Part shown: piece after piece, positions 20,161 through 29,488 of the stretch
Layout of the letters: every line of letters starts with the position of its first letter
How positions within the stretch are numbered: position 1 is the first letter of the stretch
NCBI GenBank assembly: GCA_023248025.1
Contig: JAHFFI010000003.1
Coordinates: forward strand, 1 to 37,369
Reading direction: 5' to 3'
Length of the DNA stretch: 37,369 bases
Source: Candidatus Omnitrophota bacterium
GTDB lineage: Bacteria; Omnitrophota; Gorgyraeia; 2-02-FULL-51-18
Notes under the pieces: generated by a model
The model's input: only the letters and a program-made list of their open reading frames with translations
Database searches by the model: none
Told to the model about the DNA's origin: nothing
Made by a program: the position numbers and the translations under genes

Positions 20161-21957
20161 TTATTGTATCATAATTGCGGCTACCTTCGTTCTGTCCTCA
20201 CGGCTGCGACTATCCATAACCTTCAATTGATAATTAAAAGTATCAGGAAGATCTTTAATATATAGAGAGTACTCATAAGGGATGGGGCTTGGCAGCTCTA
20301 TGGTTTCGAAGGGTTTCAGGTAGTTATCGTAGAGAATGATTTCGGCTTTCTTAATAAATAAAGAGTAGTTGGTGTGGATGGTGAATGTGAGCTTATCTTT
20401 ATCTTGGGTAGCATCTATAGAGAGTTTAGGTTTAAGAAGTAGAGGGTCTTGGAAAATAGAAGCTTTGAGTAAGGGTGCATTATGGACCTGATCAACGCCG
20501 TCGCCCGTCAGACGTACACCAAAAGATACCTTAGAGAGAATACCTTCTGTGATGGTGATTTTTCTCGGGGATTCGGTTGTGATGCTAGAGCCTTCGGGAA
20601 GCGTTGATTCATCTATTTTTAGTACTCTTTGGCCTGTTTCGATGTAAGGGAAGTGGTATTTGCCATCGCTATCGGTGATAGCGTAGATGCCTGAATCACT
20701 GGCTACTTTAACCCCCTCCATTCCTTTTTCACCGCCATCTTGTTCTCCGTTACCGTTCTTGTCTTCAAAAACCTTCCCCACCAGAGACTTTCCCTGGGTG
20801 AATTGGGGACCTAATTCTATACCGCTTTCGCCAGAGAGGTTGAAGATGAGAATACGGCGATTGGTGGTATCACCAACAAAAAGCTGCTTTCCGTTAAAAG
20901 TAACTGAACTCGCAGCACATTGCCTTTGTGAAACGCCAGCATCCTTTAAATGAAAATCAGATTGACCAATAACAAAATCGGCTGGTTGACCATTTTTTGT
21001 TGGAACGCTCTTCCAAATCAGCACTCTATTATTGTTCTGATCGGCAATAAATAAGCTTTTACCATCTGAAATAAGATCTTGCGGTGAATCCATTGATCGT
21101 GCGCTAACCCCTCCGTTATTACTATTGTTAGAAATAAAATCGGGTTGACCCAACACTACGTCTGCAGGCTCAAAGTTTGTTGTTGGAATCTTGTTCCATA
21201 TCAGAACTCGATTATTCGATGAATCCGCAACATAAAAACGACCGCCGGCACAAACGGCTTTTTCAGGAGACGATAGCGTTCTTGCACTGATACCTCCATT
21301 ATTTGCGGTTGAGGACGTAAAATTTGGCTGACCGATCACAAAATCGCCCGGAGCATTATTCGTAGTAGGAATTGTATTCCAGGCCAAGATAACATTGTGA
21401 TTACGATTGACTGAAAATAACTTCTCGCTGCACGTCGCAATTCCCCGAATGCCATTGGTAGATCGTTGTGTTGGGGGATTTATATTGGTACTTGATGTGA
21501 AGTTGGCTTGCCCCAAAACAACATCGGCCAACGTCCCATTTGTCGTCGGAATGGACCTCCAAATCAAAAGACGGCGACCTCCATTATCAGCAACAAATAA
21601 GCTTTTGCCGTCGGATATAACTCCCAATGGTTGGGAAATATTTTTTTGAGTGACCGAACCGCCAGAGTCGGTAAAAAGATCCTGCCCAACCACAACATCC
21701 GCCGGCCCGCGATTCACTTTTGGAACACTATTCCATATTAGAATGCGCCGATTTGTTGAATCGGCAACAAAAAAACGGTTACCAACCGCAGACATTGCGC
21801 GAGGATTAAATTGAAATTGATTTGCGGCTATAGCATCGGTGTCACTAAAACTGTTTTGCCCCAACACTACGTCTGCATCCATGCCATTCTGTAACTTGGC
21901 CTGGGCAAGGCTTGAGATAAGTAAAAATATAAAAATAAGGGGTAGCTTACGAGACAT
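20161..21957 (-). CDS. Secreted NHL-repeat beta-propeller protein with SdrD-B-like domain and C-terminal beta domain
   Basis: Signal peptide; six repeats of (A/G)D(V/F)V(L/V/I)GQxxF...R(I/V)LIW; GKVFEDKNGNGEQDGGEKG...ITDSDGKYHF...TLPEG. Confidence 0.85.
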   Translation of the reverse strand: MSRKLPLIFIFLLISSLAQAKLQNGMDADVVLGQNSFSDTDAIAANQFQFNPRAMSAVGNRFFVADSTNRRILIWNSVPKVNRGPADVVVGQDLFTDSGGSVTQKNISQPLGVISDGKSLFVADNGGRRLLIWRSIPTTNGTLADVVLGQANFTSSTNINPPTQRSTNGIRGIATCSEKLFSVNRNHNVILAWNTIPTTNNAPGDFVIGQPNFTSSTANNGGISARTLSSPEKAVCAGGRFYVADSSNNRVLIWNKIPTTNFEPADVVLGQPDFISNNSNNGGVSARSMDSPQDLISDGKSLFIADQNNNRVLIWKSVPTKNGQPADFVIGQSDFHLKDAGVSQRQCAASSVTFNGKQLFVGDTTNRRILIFNLSGESGIELGPQFTQGKSLVGKVFEDKNGNGEQDGGEKGMEGVKVASDSGIYAITDSDGKYHFPYIETGQRVLKIDESTLPEGSSITTESPRKITITEGILSKVSFGVRLTGDGVDQVHNAPLLKASIFQDPLLLKPKLSIDATQDKDKLTFTIHTNYSLFIKKAEIILYDNYLKPFETIELPSPIPYEYSLYIKDLPDTFNYQLKVMDSRSREDRTKVAAIMIQ

Positions 21958-21978
21958 GTTTCATGCAAAAATATTTTT

Positions 21979-24900
21979 TCAATATTTTCCCTGAAGCCGG
22001 ACAAAAAAGCCCTCTGCTTTTTTCTTTTCGAGTACAGTCAGATCGTCCTTGAAAGAGGTAAAGTTGTAGCCTGTACCGAGTGCGATGTTTTTATGAATCT
22101 GGTAAGTGAGTTCGAATAAAGGGCCATATTCCAAGGTGTTGATGTCACTCCCATTCTGTCTTAAGGAACGAAATTCGGTCGCGATGTCCATAACATTCGT
22201 AAGATGGTAATTGAGGCGATACACCGCGAGATAGGCCTTAAGGGATTGCGGCGTTTCGATAATATTATTCACAGCCACTGCAATCAAATCTTGATCGCGA
22301 TAGACAAATTTATTCACGAACTGGAAATGCGTCAATACCCAAGGCAGATCGTAGGCAAACTCCGTAGCAAACTCATTATAGGAAGATTTTTGAGTAAAAA
22401 AACCACCATCGGCGCTAACAATGTCGCGTGGTCTGTCGTCCTGTAAGTGCGTCCAGCGACCAAGCCAGTTGAACCAATCAAAATCCACCGGACGGAAGGC
22501 GACGCCCACCTGCCTTTTTTCGATACGTGAGGTTGAAATATCGCGTGTGATGTCTTTTCCCTGAGAATATTCGTACTCGCCAAATAAAAACCAGTCTTGA
22601 GACGCCTTCCACTCGGCTTGGCTATCCGATAAACTCTGCCAGTCATCTCCCGTATCAACTCGGTATTCAAATTTCGTATTCGCCTTCAGATGATCCGGTT
22701 TCACATAGGCAACCGTCGTAGACAACGCATCCTTTGGTGTGGAACCACGCAGGCTTGAATCAAGAGCCTCTTCTCTTCTTTCATACGTTGCATCCACATC
22801 CCATTCGGGTGAAAACTGATTCTTTAAAGCCGTAAGATCGGAGGTGTATATGCCGCGTGTGTCACTGGTCACGAGTTGACGTTCACGCCTAAGTTCTGCG
22901 GTTTTTGAAATCTTAGTATTGGAACCAAACACTGTGGCCGATGTGGCCCCGTCGACGGCACTATCCGATTTAATAATATTGACATAATTGGAAGTCCATG
23001 CGTCTTCCTGTCTCGATACACCTGCTAAAACAGAATTTCTATCCTGGCCGAGTGAGCCTCTCAGATAACCCAATAGGTCGCTTGTAATCTGCTGTGTAAT
23101 ACCGGCAGACGAAATATTATCAGCAGAATCGCTTAGCCCCGACTGCTGGCTCACAAATAAAGTCGTCGCATCCGAAAGATGATAATCCACTTTTTCAGCT
23201 ACGACGTGTCCAACCGTATCCGTGCCATTCACATCCGATATCGCAGTCACAGCTGTTTTTTTGCCTTGAGCTCTATATTCCGTAGTAAAAATAAATTTTT
23301 TCCAGTCGTGTACCCATTGACCGATGAAATTTTGCTCACGCGCAGCCCCGAGATCATTAATCACATTTGAATTGGGCGTGCCAATCCCTTTGTCAATAGC
23401 TCCGTCTTCGTACATAAAACGCAATTTGTCGGAGGGAGTCAATTGATGAGCCACTTCAAGACCGTATTTCTCGGAGCCGGATTCAAACAGGGTATCGGAT
23501 GGTGAAAAATTCCGTCCAATCGCGCGCCAATATCCGGAAACATCAAGAAATTCTTTATCCTTCCCAAAAAATTCCCCGATATTGGAATTAAAATCAAGAC
23601 GAATTGCATTTCCTTTGGTGCCGTTGGCTACAGCCACTTCCGTGTAATCATAACCGCCATTATAAGAAATAAAGGAGCTCGCGCTATCGGCGCGAGTCTC
23701 GGCCCATTCGGCATTCACTTTTGTGAAATTACCCAGTTTCCACGTCACGTCTCCTCCCAACATCACATGGTTTTTATTGTCCTTTTCTTCCTGAACATAA
23801 GTACCGCCCACACGAATATTATCCGTGATTTGCTGCGAGCCTCTCACACCACCTGATGCATCGTCTAAATCTTCGCCTAATATCGGGAACGCGTCCTGAC
23901 CGGTATATTCATAATTCGCCACAACAAAGACATCATTGCCTTCAAGAACGGTGTCGGAAATAACGGTGTCTGAGAAAAATACCGACGAAACAGGTTTTTT
24001 AAACAGAACGCGTCCTTCATCGTATTTAATTTCATAATCCACGTTTTCTTTTTGTGGTATAGATGATATGGTAAGACCCGTATTCTTGTCGCGCACATCC
24101 AAATGAATGTCTTCACTGCCTTCCACGATATTGCGGTGCCGCATATAATAAAGAGACCCGCCCGTGCCCAGAAGCTCGCTATGACCCTTTAATTGATTGG
24201 CCTCCGCAATGAAACCGGTGGCTTTCGTCACCGAGTCACCATAAACAGTGCGGGCCGGTGTCTCAAGATGGAGCTTGGCACCGTAAAGTGTACGGTTATA
24301 AGTGGTAAGTTTTGAATCGTCATCACCAATCTGGGTTTGGTAATTGCCTAAAACCAAGCCGGACTTATCCCATTCAATGAGAAGATAAAATTTTCCTTGA
24401 GAGTGCGCATCATAAACAACCGTCGAGTCATCTCCATAGACAGGATAATATTTATCCGGATCAATATTGGTGAAGAGCTTCTTTTGGGTTGCTTTGTCCG
24501 TGTCCAGAGAGGATTTAATTAAAAATTTTCCCTGAATTTTCCCCGTCAAATAATAGGATACCTTTCCATCCATACGTGTGCCGTCTTTAAAACGCGAATT
24601 ATCACGCTTTAAGTTGAAGCCGTCCGACGCGTCTACAAAATTAAGCGTACCGTCCGCTATGCCTGCCAGAAAAAAGTGGTTTGCTTTGGCATCAATCGTT
24701 TTCGCGTAGCGATTCGACCGCCCATCGGGATCCTTCACCTCAATGGCTATTTCCGTCTGGCCCAAAGGCACAATCACTTCCTCGTAAAATGTTCCGTCTT
24801 TTTGTATGGGCGTCTGGCGACCATTGATAAAACATTGATTGGCTTGCGCGGTCAGTCCTTTGATAATGACCGTACTTCCCATGATCGGTATCGACTGACT

Positions 24901-25002
24901 TTCGCCTGGTAAGGGTTGAGGAATAGAGAACGCCTGAGTAGACTGCACAAATGAACACGATAAATAAACCGTAATCAATACAGACGTAATGAATGTCTTC
25001 AA
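21979..25002 (-). CDS. Very large outer-membrane beta-barrel protein with N-terminal Ig-like domain (unknown function)
   Basis: Signal peptide, Ig-like N-terminus, IDPDKYYPVYGDDS motif, DYEIKYDEGRVLF, long run of amphipathic beta strands, BAM-type C-terminus FFVRLQGKY. Confidence 0.8.
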   Translation of the reverse strand: MKTFITSVLITVYLSCSFVQSTQAFSIPQPLPGESQSIPIMGSTVIIKGLTAQANQCFINGRQTPIQKDGTFYEEVIVPLGQTEIAIEVKDPDGRSNRYAKTIDAKANHFFLAGIADGTLNFVDASDGFNLKRDNSRFKDGTRMDGKVSYYLTGKIQGKFLIKSSLDTDKATQKKLFTNIDPDKYYPVYGDDSTVVYDAHSQGKFYLLIEWDKSGLVLGNYQTQIGDDDSKLTTYNRTLYGAKLHLETPARTVYGDSVTKATGFIAEANQLKGHSELLGTGGSLYYMRHRNIVEGSEDIHLDVRDKNTGLTISSIPQKENVDYEIKYDEGRVLFKKPVSSVFFSDTVISDTVLEGNDVFVVANYEYTGQDAFPILGEDLDDASGGVRGSQQITDNIRVGGTYVQEEKDNKNHVMLGGDVTWKLGNFTKVNAEWAETRADSASSFISYNGGYDYTEVAVANGTKGNAIRLDFNSNIGEFFGKDKEFLDVSGYWRAIGRNFSPSDTLFESGSEKYGLEVAHQLTPSDKLRFMYEDGAIDKGIGTPNSNVINDLGAAREQNFIGQWVHDWKKFIFTTEYRAQGKKTAVTAISDVNGTDTVGHVVAEKVDYHLSDATTLFVSQQSGLSDSADNISSAGITQQITSDLLGYLRGSLGQDRNSVLAGVSRQEDAWTSNYVNIIKSDSAVDGATSATVFGSNTKISKTAELRRERQLVTSDTRGIYTSDLTALKNQFSPEWDVDATYERREEALDSSLRGSTPKDALSTTVAYVKPDHLKANTKFEYRVDTGDDWQSLSDSQAEWKASQDWFLFGEYEYSQGKDITRDISTSRIEKRQVGVAFRPVDFDWFNWLGRWTHLQDDRPRDIVSADGGFFTQKSSYNEFATEFAYDLPWVLTHFQFVNKFVYRDQDLIAVAVNNIIETPQSLKAYLAVYRLNYHLTNVMDIATEFRSLRQNGSDINTLEYGPLFELTYQIHKNIALGTGYNFTSFKDDLTVLEKKKAEGFFVRLQGKY

Positions 25003-26070: not shown

Positions 26071-26712
26071 GTGAGTAAAATTTTAAAACATCGTTTGGCC
26101 GGAATTATCATCGTGTTCGCGTGCCTGGCGGCAGTAGCCGGCACTCGTCTCAGCCGGCATGTAGGTTCAGCCGTTTCTGCCGACCCCGCCAAGACTGAAG
26201 GCCCTGAAAATGCGCCGGTCACCATCGTTGTTTTCAGCGATTTTCAGTGTCCGTATTGTTCGCGATTCGCCCCCATCTTGAAGAAAGTACATGAAGAATT
26301 CCCGAACGATGTGAAAATTATTTTTAAACATTTTCCGCTTAAGATGCATCCTTTGGCCATACCTGCCGCAGAAGCCGCCGAGTGCGCCGGTGATCAAGGC
26401 AAGTTTTGGGCTTATCACGATATGCTTTTTGAAAAGAATGACGCTTGGGGGGAGCTTGAGCCTAAGAATGTCGCGCCCGCTTTAAAGGGTTTCGCCAAAG
26501 ATCTTGGCCTGGATACCGCCAGATTCAATGCCTGTCTGGATAAAGGCGAAAAAAAGCAGCTCATCTCGGCCAATAAGCTTGAAGGCAAAAAATTCATGGT
26601 AAGCGGCACGCCGACAGCGGTGCTCAATTTCAAAAAATACATCGTGAGTCTCGATGAAGAGGGTATCAGGAAAACCATACAGGAAGAGCTCAAGAAAGCG
26701 AATAAAAAATGA
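26071..26712 (+). CDS. DsbA-family thioredoxin-fold protein
   Basis: N-terminal anchor, FSDFQCPYC, HFPL, QGKFW, GTP cis-Pro. Confidence 0.92.
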   Translation: MSKILKHRLAGIIIVFACLAAVAGTRLSRHVGSAVSADPAKTEGPENAPVTIVVFSDFQCPYCSRFAPILKKVHEEFPNDVKIIFKHFPLKMHPLAIPAAEAAECAGDQGKFWAYHDMLFEKNDAWGELEPKNVAPALKGFAKDLGLDTARFNACLDKGEKKQLISANKLEGKKFMVSGTPTAVLNFKKYIVSLDEEGIRKTIQEELKKANKK

Positions 26713-27161
26713 AAATTCTCTGGGAATATTTTTTACTCACGCTGCGTTTTATGGCCGGCCTTCTTTTTATCTATTCGGGCTTTCTTAAGTTGATCCAACC
26801 CGTCGAATACTTTCAATTCGCGATGGGCCTATATCAGTTCGTTCCGGAAAATCTGATACCGTTCTTCGCCTTGATCATTCCCTGGCTTGAGCTGATCACC
26901 GGCGCCTTTCTTTTTCTGGGGTATCTCTCGAAGCCATCCTCTTTTGTGCTGCTCTGCCTCACGGTGCTATTCCAGATCGTCATCGGACAGGCCGTTTTCC
27001 GCGGTCTTCCCATCGAAGAATGCGGCTGTTTCGGCGGACTCATCCATTTCTCGCCTTGCCAAACATATATTTTTGATTCGGTGGTTTTGCTCGTTCTATT
27101 GGCGCTCACCCTATCACCCCGCAATTCCTTTTCTCTGGACTCCATTATTCTCGAAAACTAA
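26709..27161 (+). CDS. MauE/DoxX-family redox membrane protein
   Basis: LFIYSGFLK, PWLE, CGCFG. Confidence 0.88.
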   Translation: MKILWEYFLLTLRFMAGLLFIYSGFLKLIQPVEYFQFAMGLYQFVPENLIPFFALIIPWLELITGAFLFLGYLSKPSSFVLLCLTVLFQIVIGQAVFRGLPIEECGCFGGLIHFSPCQTYIFDSVVLLVLLALTLSPRNSFSLDSIILEN

Positions 27162-27194: not shown

Positions 27195-28418
27195 TTACTG
27201 GTAGCGAAGCGCTAGGATGGGGTCGAGTTTTGAGGCTTTGATGGCCGGATAGATACCGAAGAGAACTCCTACCTGCACCGAAGAAAAAGTCGCAAGAATG
27301 ATAGCGTCCATCCCTATGATCGGCGGATTTTCCCGGAACACCAATCCCAGTAAAAATACGACTACGAACGAGCCCAAGAGACCCGCGATGCCGCCTGTGG
27401 TGCTCACAATCGTGGATTCCACCAGGAACTGAAATAAAATATCGCGCGATTTTGCGCCCACCGCTTTACGGATTCCTATCTCGCGCACGCGCTGTGCGAT
27501 ATTGGCCATCATCACGTTTAGGATGCCGATACCACCCACGATCAGAGAAATTCCCGCTATCGCGCTGAAACCGATTTTCATATTTCTCAAGGTCTTGCGT
27601 GATTGTTGATACTGTTCTTCCTGAGTTTGCACTTCTATATCTTCAGCGCCGTGGCTGGCCGCAAGGATACGAGTCGCCTCTTGCTGCACACGCGTGATGT
27701 CGCGTTGCCGGCTCACAACATAATCGATCTGGGCAACTTCCTGTTTATTATTGAATTTTTTCGACAGAACCGTATACGGAACGTATATTTTTTGATTTTC
27801 ACTTTCGAGCACGTTCTGTTTACGGCGTATTAATTTTCTTTCTTTTAGAAGCCCCACCACATCAAACACATGTCCGCCTATCTGTATCGGCTGACCGATC
27901 GGATTGACCCGAGACCCAAATAGGCTGCTTCGCGCCCCCGCCCCAATAACACAGACACTCCGGGCGGATTCGAGGTCTTCGGACGTAAGCAATCGTCCGT
28001 TTTCAAGACGTTGTTTGTCGATTGAAAAAATATCGGGCGTGGAGCCCGTGATTTCCAGATAATTCTGATTTCGTCCTTGAAAATTCACTTCTTTATAATC
28101 CGCGGCGGATGCCGCCACAAAACGAATCATCGGAATTTCTTTTTTTAACGCGTCGGCATCGTCGAGGGTAAGAGGCTTTTTTAATTCTTCACGCTTGATG
28201 CCATTCACAACGGGAATTTTGGGAGTGATGGTGGCTTTTTTCAATCCTCCAATCTCGTTGAGCTGTTTAAGCCAGCCGCGTTCGATACCCGTCATTAGGG
28301 ACATCATAGCTATCAGCGCGATAACACCCACAATAATACCGAGAACGCTCAAGAAAGAACGGAGTTTATTGGCCCAAAGCTCTTTTAGACCGACAAGTGC
28401 GCATTCTTTGAGCAGCAT
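27195..28418 (-). CDS. MacB/FtsX-family ABC permease
   Basis: NKLRSFLSVLGIIVGV, periplasmic domain, GGIGILNVM...REIGIRKAVGA, DPILALRY. Confidence 0.92.
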   Translation of the reverse strand: MLLKECALVGLKELWANKLRSFLSVLGIIVGVIALIAMMSLMTGIERGWLKQLNEIGGLKKATITPKIPVVNGIKREELKKPLTLDDADALKKEIPMIRFVAASAADYKEVNFQGRNQNYLEITGSTPDIFSIDKQRLENGRLLTSEDLESARSVCVIGAGARSSLFGSRVNPIGQPIQIGGHVFDVVGLLKERKLIRRKQNVLESENQKIYVPYTVLSKKFNNKQEVAQIDYVVSRQRDITRVQQEATRILAASHGAEDIEVQTQEEQYQQSRKTLRNMKIGFSAIAGISLIVGGIGILNVMMANIAQRVREIGIRKAVGAKSRDILFQFLVESTIVSTTGGIAGLLGSFVVVFLLGLVFRENPPIIGMDAIILATFSSVQVGVLFGIYPAIKASKLDPILALRYQ

Positions 28419-29488
28419 TAGGAAGTCGGCTCCTCGAGATAAACTTCTTCGCCTGCTTTTAGTCCGCTTTTAATTTCTACAAAGTCAGAACTGCTTGTGC
28501 CTGTCTGAACGGGACGCTTTTCGGACGACATTCCTCGCTTGGCCACAAAGCAGTAACTTTCATTTCCGTCTCGGAAGACTGCCTCCACCGGTACCGCTAG
28601 GACATTTAGACTTGTTTTAACGACGATCTCAATATTCGCATTGGCACCCAGCGTAAATTTGCCTTCATTATCGGTGATCTGGATCTGGGCACGAAATTGG
28701 TTGGCTGTGTCGGCTTTTGTCGCCGCTTCATCGATCTTGGAAATGCGGCCTTCGTCCCGTGCCTTGGGTTCGCTGTCGAGCCAGAAAGTAACGGGCATGC
28801 CGAGTTTCAAAAAGGAACGCTCGACATCGTTTACATATATTTCTATACTTTTTTCGTCAACATTGGTGATGGTCATAAGTGCCTTCGAGCTGCCATCACT
28901 GGCTTTCGCGACGATCTCACCCTCCTGAATGCTCATATCGGTGACAACCCCTGAAATGGGCGACGTGATGGTGATCTTCTGTAATTGTTCTTCTACGGCT
29001 TCGAGATCTCTTTGAGCCATTTTGTAATCGAGCTCGGCCAATTTAATCGCCGTCTCCGCTTCCTTGAATTGCGAAGCTGAAATCAGCTTCTCGTCATAAA
29101 GCGCCTGCTTGCGGCCGAAGTCTTCTTTCAGATTGTTGTAACTGATATCTGTCTTCTGAAGCTGCATTCTCTGACGGTCAAGCTGCGTCTGAATCAGCGC
29201 CTCGTCAATCTTTAGAAGCAGATCGCCCGCTTTGACAGGCGCGCCTTTTTCCACCATCACTTTCATCACTTTTCCGCCGGCTTCCGAATAAATAGAGACC
29301 TTGTTGGCCGAGATAATGGGTCCGCGAAGCTTCACCACATCCAACACATCCCGCACCTCTGCTTTGGCTTTTTTAAGCGGTCCTCTATTTTTGCCGTCCT
29401 CGTCTTTATTGCCGGAGAAGAATACGAGAAGACCCACCGGGATAAGCACCACGGCCAGAGCGATGATAATAATTTTAATTCGGTTCAT
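28418..29488 (-). CDS. MacA-like periplasmic adaptor (membrane fusion protein)
   Basis: N-terminal TM, lipoyl halves (VKAGDLL, SPISGVV), coiled coil, VEIKSGLKAGE. Confidence 0.9.
   Translation of the reverse strand: MNRIKIIIIALAVVLIPVGLLVFFSGNKDEDGKNRGPLKKAKAEVRDVLDVVKLRGPIISANKVSIYSEAGGKVMKVMVEKGAPVKAGDLLLKIDEALIQTQLDRQRMQLQKTDISYNNLKEDFGRKQALYDEKLISASQFKEAETAIKLAELDYKMAQRDLEAVEEQLQKITITSPISGVVTDMSIQEGEIVAKASDGSSKALMTITNVDEKSIEIYVNDVERSFLKLGMPVTFWLDSEPKARDEGRISKIDEAATKADTANQFRAQIQITDNEGKFTLGANANIEIVVKTSLNVLAVPVEAVFRDGNESYCFVAKRGMSSEKRPVQTGTSSSDFVEIKSGLKAGEEVYLEEPTS

Follow-up and report, generated by a model that had tools for sequence, protein, structure and literature searches.

What do two adjacent genes of an Omnitrophota bacterium make, one encoding a very large beta-barrel protein and the other a propeller protein, and do their products belong together? 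Both lie on the minus strand of a window of 37,369 nucleotides, by which we mean the whole stretch of DNA analysed (Candidatus Omnitrophota bacterium, GenBank assembly GCA_023248025.1, contig JAHFFI010000003.1, positions 1 to 37,369 of the forward strand). We propose, with a probability of roughly 0.55, that the two genes encode one outer-membrane complex, which in most relatives is a single chain in the order variable arm, SdrD_B domain, tail, immunoglobulin (Ig)-like domain and giant barrel. Judged by comparison of sequences, the pair of the window is a split, gene-order-swapped, NHL-headed variant of this normally fused protein. The two open reading frames (ORFs) and their main domains are as follows.

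21979..25002, minus strand: barrel-protein gene, a 1007-aa ORF with a TTG start, encoding a signal peptide, an Ig-like domain and a beta-barrel
24685..24876, minus strand: Ig-like domain of the barrel protein, residues 43-106 (Pfam Glucodextran_B, E 4.4e-7)
21985..24672, minus strand: predicted transmembrane beta-barrel, residues 111-1006 (DSSP of the AlphaFold2 model)
20161..21957, minus strand: partner gene, a 598-aa ORF with an ATG start, encoding a signal peptide, NHL propeller, SdrD_B domain, linker and tail
20833..21885, minus strand: NHL-type propeller head of the partner, residues ~25-375, six repeats (Pfam NHL, E 2.5e-10)
20506..20805, minus strand: SdrD_B-like domain of the partner, residues ~385-484 (Pfam SdrD_B at 395-462, E 3.4e-9)
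20164..20397, minus strand: tail domain of the partner, residues ~521-598, about 80 aa, TNYSLFIKKAEI...EDRT

The relation between the two proteins is seen in fused relatives. Residues 380-597 of the partner, comprising the SdrD_B domain, the linker and the tail, align with residues 310-540 of a fused protein (P0037), directly before its own Ig domain and barrel (E 3e-26), and the Ig domain of this protein, at 574-640, is of the same Glucodextran_B-like kind. The tail alone aligns with a proteobacterial 'OmpA family protein' (P0082, E 4e-4). Two family motifs present in the window barrel, DxYY[PY][IV]YGD (residues 181-191) and [FL]x[AG]TGGSLYY (residues 278-286), served as genome search patterns; taking one genome per species, at least 592 relatives were found among the 600 motif-pattern matches listed. 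Eighty loci were kept, and counts out of 81 add the window's own locus (L001). They span Omnitrophota, Planctomycetota, Nitrospirota, Acidobacteriota, Pseudomonadota, Campylobacterota and Myxococcota, and include the cultured Leucothrix arctica and Orbus sasakiae.

Domains were mapped in these loci with iterated hidden Markov models (HMMs) built within the loci and seeded with the window tail, the window SdrD_B domain and Pfam-defined DUF11 and OmpA stretches, a procedure in which drift is possible. The tail was located in the barrel ORF in 68/81 loci and in a neighbouring ORF in 2/81, and it was not found in 11/81, several of them at contig ends; within these loci it occurs only in barrel ORFs or in ORFs adjoining them. 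The SdrD_B domain shares an ORF with the barrel in 52 of the 80 loci and occupies an abutting ORF in 21 more, together 73/80. As for the other seven, the contig start truncates five barrel ORFs, the contig end truncates the downstream partner in one locus (L003), and one locus (L044) has no SdrD_B domain. The recurrent order is [DUF11]n-DUF11-SdrD_B-(OmpA)-tail-(OmpA)-Ig-barrel, with order and spacing kept across phyla. From fusion and adjacency, barrel and partner very likely form a physical complex.

A preliminary description of this DNA had read the pair as a modular system of two proteins and had named two results that would speak against it, namely a barrel belonging to a characterised family and homologues that do not co-occur with SdrD_B-tailed secreted proteins. 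Both were looked for and neither was found, the co-occurrence being borne out by the 73 loci above. The modular system with a dedicated, uncharacterised giant barrel therefore stands. The two-protein state as its ground state does not: because the tail lies within the barrel polypeptide in 68/81 loci, the window pair derives from a fused protein by a secondary split, and for the same reason the tail can no longer be taken as a general docking tag on the partner side.

Separate chains are nevertheless recurrent, since the proteobacterial loci are split at another place: there, a giant protein encoded upstream has SdrD_B or OmpA at its end, and a second ORF supplies its own signal peptide, the tail, the Ig domain and the barrel. 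The window shows a third arrangement, cut between tail and Ig, with the barrel gene first and an NHL propeller replacing DUF11; its novelty lies in where it is split and in the NHL head. SdrD_B and tail are here absent from the barrel chain and reside on a separate, downstream-encoded protein; the barrel is a split variant, as are the other seven barrels of the window type. Among sampled Omnitrophota genomes, 112/301 contain a barrel match at E<=1e-20 (72/247 of the high-quality ones). Eight genomes, that of the window included, have the ~1000-aa form at 50% identity or more, and the others have fused forms of ~1500-1650 or 2300-4300 aa. In 7/8 window-type loci an NHL-SdrD_B-tail gene, or an NHL start at the contig end, lies directly downstream of the barrel, with a 125-aa ORF between barrel and partner in one genome (G187). 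The window genome itself (1.47 Mb, 152 contigs, ~84% complete) holds a single barrel copy.

Beyond the 80 loci the family is large, too large for the features described here to be a matter of chance. One search with the barrel gave 237 matches at E<=1e-3 among 8000 scored candidates, and a 53-member profile run against 1.84 billion representatives gave 7113 clusters (50% identity) at E<=1e-3 and 2501 at E<=1e-30. The best 150 profile matches, proteins of up to 7402 aa with arms that reach ~6400 aa, carry the barrel at their C-terminal end or close to it. The nearest relatives of the window barrel are ~1000 aa long and 47-63% identical, those with a named source being all from Omnitrophota; the next nearest, in a length-limited search, have 1450-1750 aa and also DUF11, SdrD_B or OmpA domains.

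The N-terminal arms differ widely in content. Pfam was run on 35 of 90 N-terminal regions or upstream ORFs, with results consistent with the local HMM maps, and showed DUF11 in 27, SdrD_B in 22, OmpA in 19, Invasin_D3 in 6, Big_1 in 4, PKD in 2 and beta-helix in 2. With the NHL head of the window, these DUF11 arrays, Big_1, Invasin_D3, PKD and beta-helix arms confirm that the N-terminal passengers differ from member to member, as had been supposed. In the local HMM maps OmpA always stands between the last DUF11-SdrD_B pair and the Ig domain; it was N-terminal of DUF11 in 0/36 OmpA-bearing ORFs, and in many relatives it directly precedes or follows the tail. This confinement near the Ig domain divides the arm into a wall-binding portion close to the barrel and a variable portion farther out. 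Five loci (L011, L012, L013, L021 and L047) have, just upstream of a fused barrel gene, ORFs of 170-230 aa with a single DUF11 match, which may code for additional subunits of this structure or be pieces of one longer gene.

In the partner, the six propeller repeats have the consensus ADVVLGQPxFT...DGxRLFVxDxxNxRVLIWNSIPTxN in an alignment of 27 sequences (26 full-length relatives). The SdrD_B domain holds a DKNGNGEQD loop and the stretches TLPEG, TTESPR and SKVSFG, matches SdrD in the PDB (4jdz, E 5.7e-4), and is followed by a conserved linker, PLLKxSxxQDPxxLKPxLS (residues 495-513), that leads to the tail. Mean identity to relatives is 72% for SdrD_B, 44% for the NHL head and 42% for the tail, which matches no Pfam family. 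The partner has no OmpA domain and no Pfam match to SLH, and POTRA, ShlB and the haemagglutination domain gave none in it at E<=1. Among the closest relatives of the NHL head are a protein that its source labels LPXTG-anchored and proteins of Paceibacterota and Acidimicrobiaceae. The six-bladed propeller, the SdrD_B domain with its three stretches and the TNYSLFIKKAEI tail had all been recognised earlier, and repeats, Pfam and sequence agree with that assignment.

The two ORFs are separated by 21 nt, both on the minus strand with the barrel gene first. The barrel gene begins at a TTG that shares letters with the stop codon of the CNNM/CBS transporter gene before it (cTTGA), and a Shine-Dalgarno-like GAGGAAG stands 8-9 nt 5' of this start, features that suggest translational coupling with the upstream gene. 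Alignments of relatives to the barrel protein begin at residues 5-9. In the public gene call (967 aa) and in the ESM Atlas the protein starts only at Met41 (24883-25002 of the window is affected), so that both the TTG start and the signal peptide are missed. Signal peptides were assigned by eye from the sequence in both proteins, at residues 1-24 of the barrel protein and 1-20 of the partner (cleavage between AQA and K); in the AlphaFold2 model, that of the barrel protein is a helix (4-16) of low confidence. The adjacent, co-oriented genes and their putative signal peptides are in these terms as first described. Further features of the barrel protein are listed here.

24931..25002, minus strand: putative signal peptide of the barrel protein, residues 1-24, cleavage after STQA (before F)
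24388..24501, minus strand: conserved motif loop, residues 168-205, 38 residues, on the long-loop side
24424-24462, minus strand: motif DPDKYYPVYGDDS, residues 181-193, within loop 168-205
23938..24168, minus strand: beta-sandwich insert, residues 279-355, 77 aa, after TGGSLYY, on the tight-turn side
21982..22011, minus strand: C-terminal strand, ending ...GFFVRLQGKY with a terminal aromatic residue

The barrel is an uncharacterised family, without a name, a solved structure or a tested function. Pfam matched only the Ig domain, and for the barrel region NCBIfam gave 0 matches and PDB sequences 0 at E<=1; POTRA, plug and OmpA domains gave no Pfam or NCBIfam match at E<=1 in the barrel protein, and the labels around it in the ESM Atlas are only 'outer membrane protein', 'OmpA family', 'MotB' and 'hypothetical'. 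Together with the structural searches below, these results place it outside the characterised families. They also agree with the earlier account, which had seen the Ig-like domain, the DPDKYYPVYGDDS motif and the terminal Tyr (...LQGKY) and no POTRA, plug or OmpA; the strand region, put there at ~600 aa, spans ~900 aa in the model (111-1006). The C-terminal consensus of the family is GFFxRLQGKY or GWFxNxxGKY, a strand which we take to resemble the signal recognised by the barrel-assembly machinery.

Two AlphaFold2 models were analysed, of the window barrel (mean predicted local distance difference test (pLDDT) 81.7, predicted template modelling score (pTM) 0.77) and of a 1197-aa Orbus protein (pLDDT 79.8, pTM 0.75), in which tail, Ig and barrel form one chain and which is 27% identical to the window barrel (tblastn). 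DSSP assigned 42 strands in both, or 40 if a short hairpin (206-222) is counted as part of a loop. The predicted count for the barrel is thus about 40-42 strands and exceeds that of SprA (36), and the standard barrel formula gives an estimated C-alpha radius of ~37 Å for 42 strands and 32 Å for 36. The Ig strands (43-105) were modelled at pLDDT 80-93, with ~5 residues from the Ig domain to barrel strand 1, and the tail domain in the fused Orbus model at 85-96.

Structural searches yielded generic barrels only, namely SlpA, SprA, TonB-dependent receptors, ushers and porins. The best Foldseek matches were SlpA chains (7zgx_A, 8ae1_A; E ~4e-9, template modelling (TM) score 0.21-0.23). VIA-align matched SprA (6h3i_A) over 601 residues across model positions 109-1007 (Z 13.8, root mean square deviation (rmsd) 12.4 Å), FimD (Z 13.1) and PapC (Z 12.5) with only model ~111-727 covered and an rmsd of 14-15, and CdiB chains (Z 10-11.8) among the generic barrel matches. 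Around the insert, VIA-align matched residues 269-368 to an Ig-like phage neck protein (Z 9.1, rmsd 2.0, 69 residues); the insert is 76-79 residues long in 53/53 aligned sequences, with a conservation of 0.78.

Outer-membrane proteins usually have tight periplasmic turns and variable outer loops. The orientation of the barrel was examined through the standard deviation of connection lengths across the 53-sequence alignment, strand 1 being taken as starting in the periplasm. A standard deviation <=0.5 was found for 17/20 even-numbered and 4/21 odd-numbered connections (medians 0.05 vs 1.5; Mann-Whitney p 1e-5). The near-fixed even connections follow the usual tight-turn pattern, and therefore place the Ig domain, the C-terminus and the 77-aa insert in the periplasm. 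By the same parity, the motif loop 168-205 is predicted on the external or lumenal side. It contains DPDKYYPVYGDDS, the most conserved stretch of the family, with the invariant columns D181, Y189, G190 and D191; the frequency of the commonest residue over the loop, 0.89, is the highest of all barrel segments, and yet the loop has a pLDDT < 50 in both models (window residues 172-197; Orbus protein 395-419). A loop that is least confidently modelled and most conserved would fit a site ordered by a ligand, a metal or a partner. The tail was considered for this role and set aside, loop 395-419 being still at pLDDT <50 with the tail in the same chain.

These observations are consistent with the following working of the pair. 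Barrel protein and partner would both be exported by Sec, the barrel would be inserted by the barrel-assembly machinery with its N-terminal Ig domain and the 77-aa insert facing the periplasm, and the tail of the partner would dock non-covalently at the periplasmic mouth of the barrel, replacing the covalent link of the relatives. Taken jointly, these steps are quite probable. The position of the Ig domain on the tight-turn side and the OmpA domains that flank the tail in relatives make the periplasm the most probable place of the tail and of the docking end of the partner; the same two facts make an external display platform, as first envisaged, less likely. A complex prediction of barrel 109-1007 with tail 499-598, each supplied with its alignment, gave interface scores (ipSAE) of 0.00 and 0.02, for a construct without barrel 24-108 (the mature N-terminus and Ig), SdrD_B and head, segments which include the most likely contact partners.

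From this base, the conserved SdrD_B domain may sit in the very wide lumen or thread it, and the NHL propeller may then be held at the cell surface, in which case the complex would span the outer membrane and anchor a module outside it. Taken together, these two placements are offered tentatively, at somewhat less than even odds. What speaks for such a surface-threaded arrangement is the polarity of the arm, its adhesin-type domains, its size, the wide lumen and a published DUF11/OmpA adhesin (see below), as well as the finding that within each of the two proteins constraint is highest in SdrD_B (72%) and in the motif loop (0.89), respectively.

Several points weigh against the proposed complex or this arrangement of it. 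The strand count comes from DSSP of models, and the size of the lumen from the barrel formula. No pore-spanning linker is visible in the models, and the Ig domain ends only ~5 residues before strand 1. The motif loop stays below a pLDDT of 50 with the tail in the chain, so the tail does not order it in the model. In some relatives SdrD_B is just 25-35 residues from OmpA, and for these chains the most economical reading keeps SdrD_B periplasmic too. The relatives are not independent of each other, and the counts overstate the number of independent events. One window-type barrel (G172, locus L084) is followed by another gene and no partner in the 2.3 kb available downstream. Finally, five Omnitrophota genomes (G058, G066, G172, G198 and G028) carry both split (~1010-1040 aa) and fused (~1350-1650 aa) barrels, which are therefore paralogues and not simple replacements, and the split form may have a role of its own.

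The outer-membrane-spanning complex could be taken further, to a widespread translocon-anchor family in which folded Ig-like fibres, or the propeller, pass through the barrel and the proximal module (the tail, with or without OmpA) is locked in the periplasm. This extension is possible, if rather doubtful. It would represent an export and anchoring route unrelated to types I-XI and the widest single-chain barrel yet, of which the Omnitrophota pair would be a natural two-component form.

Alternatively, the whole partner might remain in the periplasm as a tether or scaffold that links the outer membrane to the wall, with the barrel as its anchor, perhaps also a wide porin, and the NHL head replacing the OmpA/DUF11 modules of other members. 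The Ig domain and insert on the tight-turn side agree with this, as do the OmpA domains in 19/35 arms, right beside tail and SdrD_B and with short SdrD_B-OmpA spacers, and the invisibility of a pore-spanning linker in the models. SlpA, whose chains rank first in Foldseek (E ~4e-9, TM only 0.21-0.23), gives a precedent of a tether made of a wall-binding domain and a 30-strand barrel. However, arms of ~6400 aa made of adhesin-type repeats are hard to fit in the periplasm, and a wholly periplasmic arm gives no reason why OmpA never occurs within the distal arrays (0/36). The relatives of the NHL head (the one LPXTG-anchored by its source name, those of Paceibacterota and Acidimicrobiaceae) should moreover be extracellular, and a mere anchor would not need 40 strands. 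We regard the tether as less likely than the threaded arrangement.

A secretion channel that releases the folded partner to the medium, with the tail as a targeting signal and in the manner of two-partner secretion or SprA, is very improbable. The lumen is comparable to or wider than that of SprA, from the radius estimates and the 601-residue VIA-align match, and the partner is a separate chain with its own putative signal peptide. But the arm is covalently fused to the barrel in 52/80 loci, so that release cannot be what the family does in general, the OmpA domains of the arm point to retention, and Pfam found no POTRA, two-partner secretion (TPS) or type IX C-terminal signal domain in the window pair. 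That the two genes are neighbours without a shared function, the likeness of the partner's C-terminus to fused proteins being due only to shuffling of common Ig-like modules, is hardly credible: SdrD_B is indeed a common and mobile domain and one window-type barrel has no adjoining partner, but the tail is no common domain, has no Pfam family and in the loci lies only in or beside barrel ORFs, order and spacing are kept across phyla, and the partner adjoins in 7/8.

How the complex stands to known systems was considered in turn. With type Va and Vb secretion it shares an N-terminal arm and a C-terminal barrel in one chain or, elsewhere in the family, in two neighbouring genes, and with type V in general the Sec-dependent proteins (as predicted for the pair) and a terminal aromatic residue on the barrel. 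In contrast to type Va, it has ~40-42 strands and not 12, an Ig domain in place of a helical linker before strand 1, and no Pfam Autotransporter match at E<=1; in contrast to type Vb, ~40-42 strands and not 16, with POTRA, ShlB and TPS/haemagglutination domains not matched in either protein at E<=1. It differs from type Ve in that the barrel is C-terminal in the best 150 relatives, and not N-terminal with a Big_1 passenger, and in giving no Pfam match. The arms of the family also contain OmpA domains, unlike type V, and the sequences are not homologous. What defines type V is thus missing, in line with the distinction drawn in the preliminary description, and the fused and two-gene forms may be seen as analogous in logic to autotransporters and two-partner systems, not as homologous to them. 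For ushers, which have a 24-strand barrel with a plug and a neighbouring chaperone, there was no Usher Pfam match, no chaperone gene was recognised among the window neighbours, and FimD and PapC aligned only partially at high rmsd.

SlpA of Deinococcus radiodurans (7zgx, 8ae1) resembles the family in its very large C-terminal barrel and in the N-terminal wall-binding domain that many family members have. It differs by its SLH domain (no Pfam match in either window protein) and its coiled coil, and the TM score is only 0.21-0.23; wall binding in the family is of the OmpA and not the SLH type, with none in the window pair, and the arms of the family are long and adhesin-like. An analogy in working with tethers of the SlpA/OmpM type is still possible. 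SprA (36 strands, 6h3i) has a comparably wide barrel and gave the longest structural alignment, 601 residues, although an rmsd of 12.4 Å indicates a generic barrel resemblance, there is no SprA Pfam match, and nothing was found that points to type IX secretion.

In the literature searched, supplements aside, we found no functional account of this barrel, and only two sources came near it. Solan et al. (PNAS 2021, PMC8346858) predicted from contact maps a superfamily of barrels with 38 (family 003) and 40 strands (family 002); like these, the window barrel is a single, very large barrel, predicted to be larger than any solved, and 40-42 strands fits their 40-strand family. The available text gives no function, partners or domain order, and the likeness is by strand count only. 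The 36 strands of SprA are given as the largest solved barrel in two barrel-prediction preprints, of 2022 and 2026. The second source is a survey (10.1101/2025.04.25.650565) in which DUF11 is renamed CLIPPER and Acinetobacter silvestris B9T28_05395, with a C-terminal OmpA-like anchor, is read as a surface fibrillar adhesin. Its build of head, DUF11 stalk and OmpA-like end is that of the upstream proteins in the proteobacterial loci, whereas the window partner has an NHL propeller in place of a DUF11 stalk and no OmpA. The terms 'outer membrane' and 'beta-barrel' have 0 occurrences each in the main text of that survey.

The surroundings of the pair in the window are of a housekeeping kind (an LbH protein, a histidine phosphatase, RlmN, a DsbA-like protein and a MacB/HlyD pump). 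Upstream of the CNNM-barrel-partner string, and divergent from it, are genes for a DsbA-like thioredoxin and a MauE/DoxX membrane protein (26071-27161, plus strand), and just past these a MacB-type permease and an HlyD-type adaptor (27195-29488, minus strand). No connection of the DsbA-like/MauE-DoxX or MacB/HlyD genes to the pair was found.

Other clades have neighbours that recur, namely a histidine kinase (16 loci), a FecR + Glucodextran_B protein (7), an AsmA-like protein (7) and a 1913-aa TPR protein (9); none of the four is in the window, where housekeeping genes are found. A conserved neighbour of 430 aa was seen in L006, L011, L013, L016, L018, L021 and L033 (Nitrospirota, Acidobacteriota and others). 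The only copy scanned, directly after the barrel gene in L033 (10880-12169), combines FecR with a C-terminal Glucodextran_B Ig domain of the kind that precedes the barrel. Giant forms of 2300-3450 aa occur in nine loci from Omnitrophota and Planctomycetota (L029, L032, L040, L065, L066, L068, L076, L078 and L080). Their barrels have ~130 extra residues beyond the barrel match, and nearby are the TPR protein (9) and the AsmA-like protein (7), downstream of the barrel in L078 (11521-17259) and in L029 (14135-15646).

If the outer-membrane complex proposed here is correct, a barrel of greater width than any solved one serves to attach large surface or envelope modules in thousands of diderm bacteria, spread over seven phyla or more. 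This would bear on how the giant Ig-like adhesins of Gram-negative bacteria cross the outer membrane and stay on it, on the maximum size of barrel that the assembly machinery can handle, and on the sealing of a pore of ~6 nm. As arm and barrel are separate chains in the window (598 and 1007 aa), the pair lends itself to in-trans tests of docking, surface exposure and plugging; the fused forms, with their 1500-7400 aa, give no such access. For the Omnitrophota, a phylum with little experimental envelope biology, the pair would describe a prominent component of the envelope.

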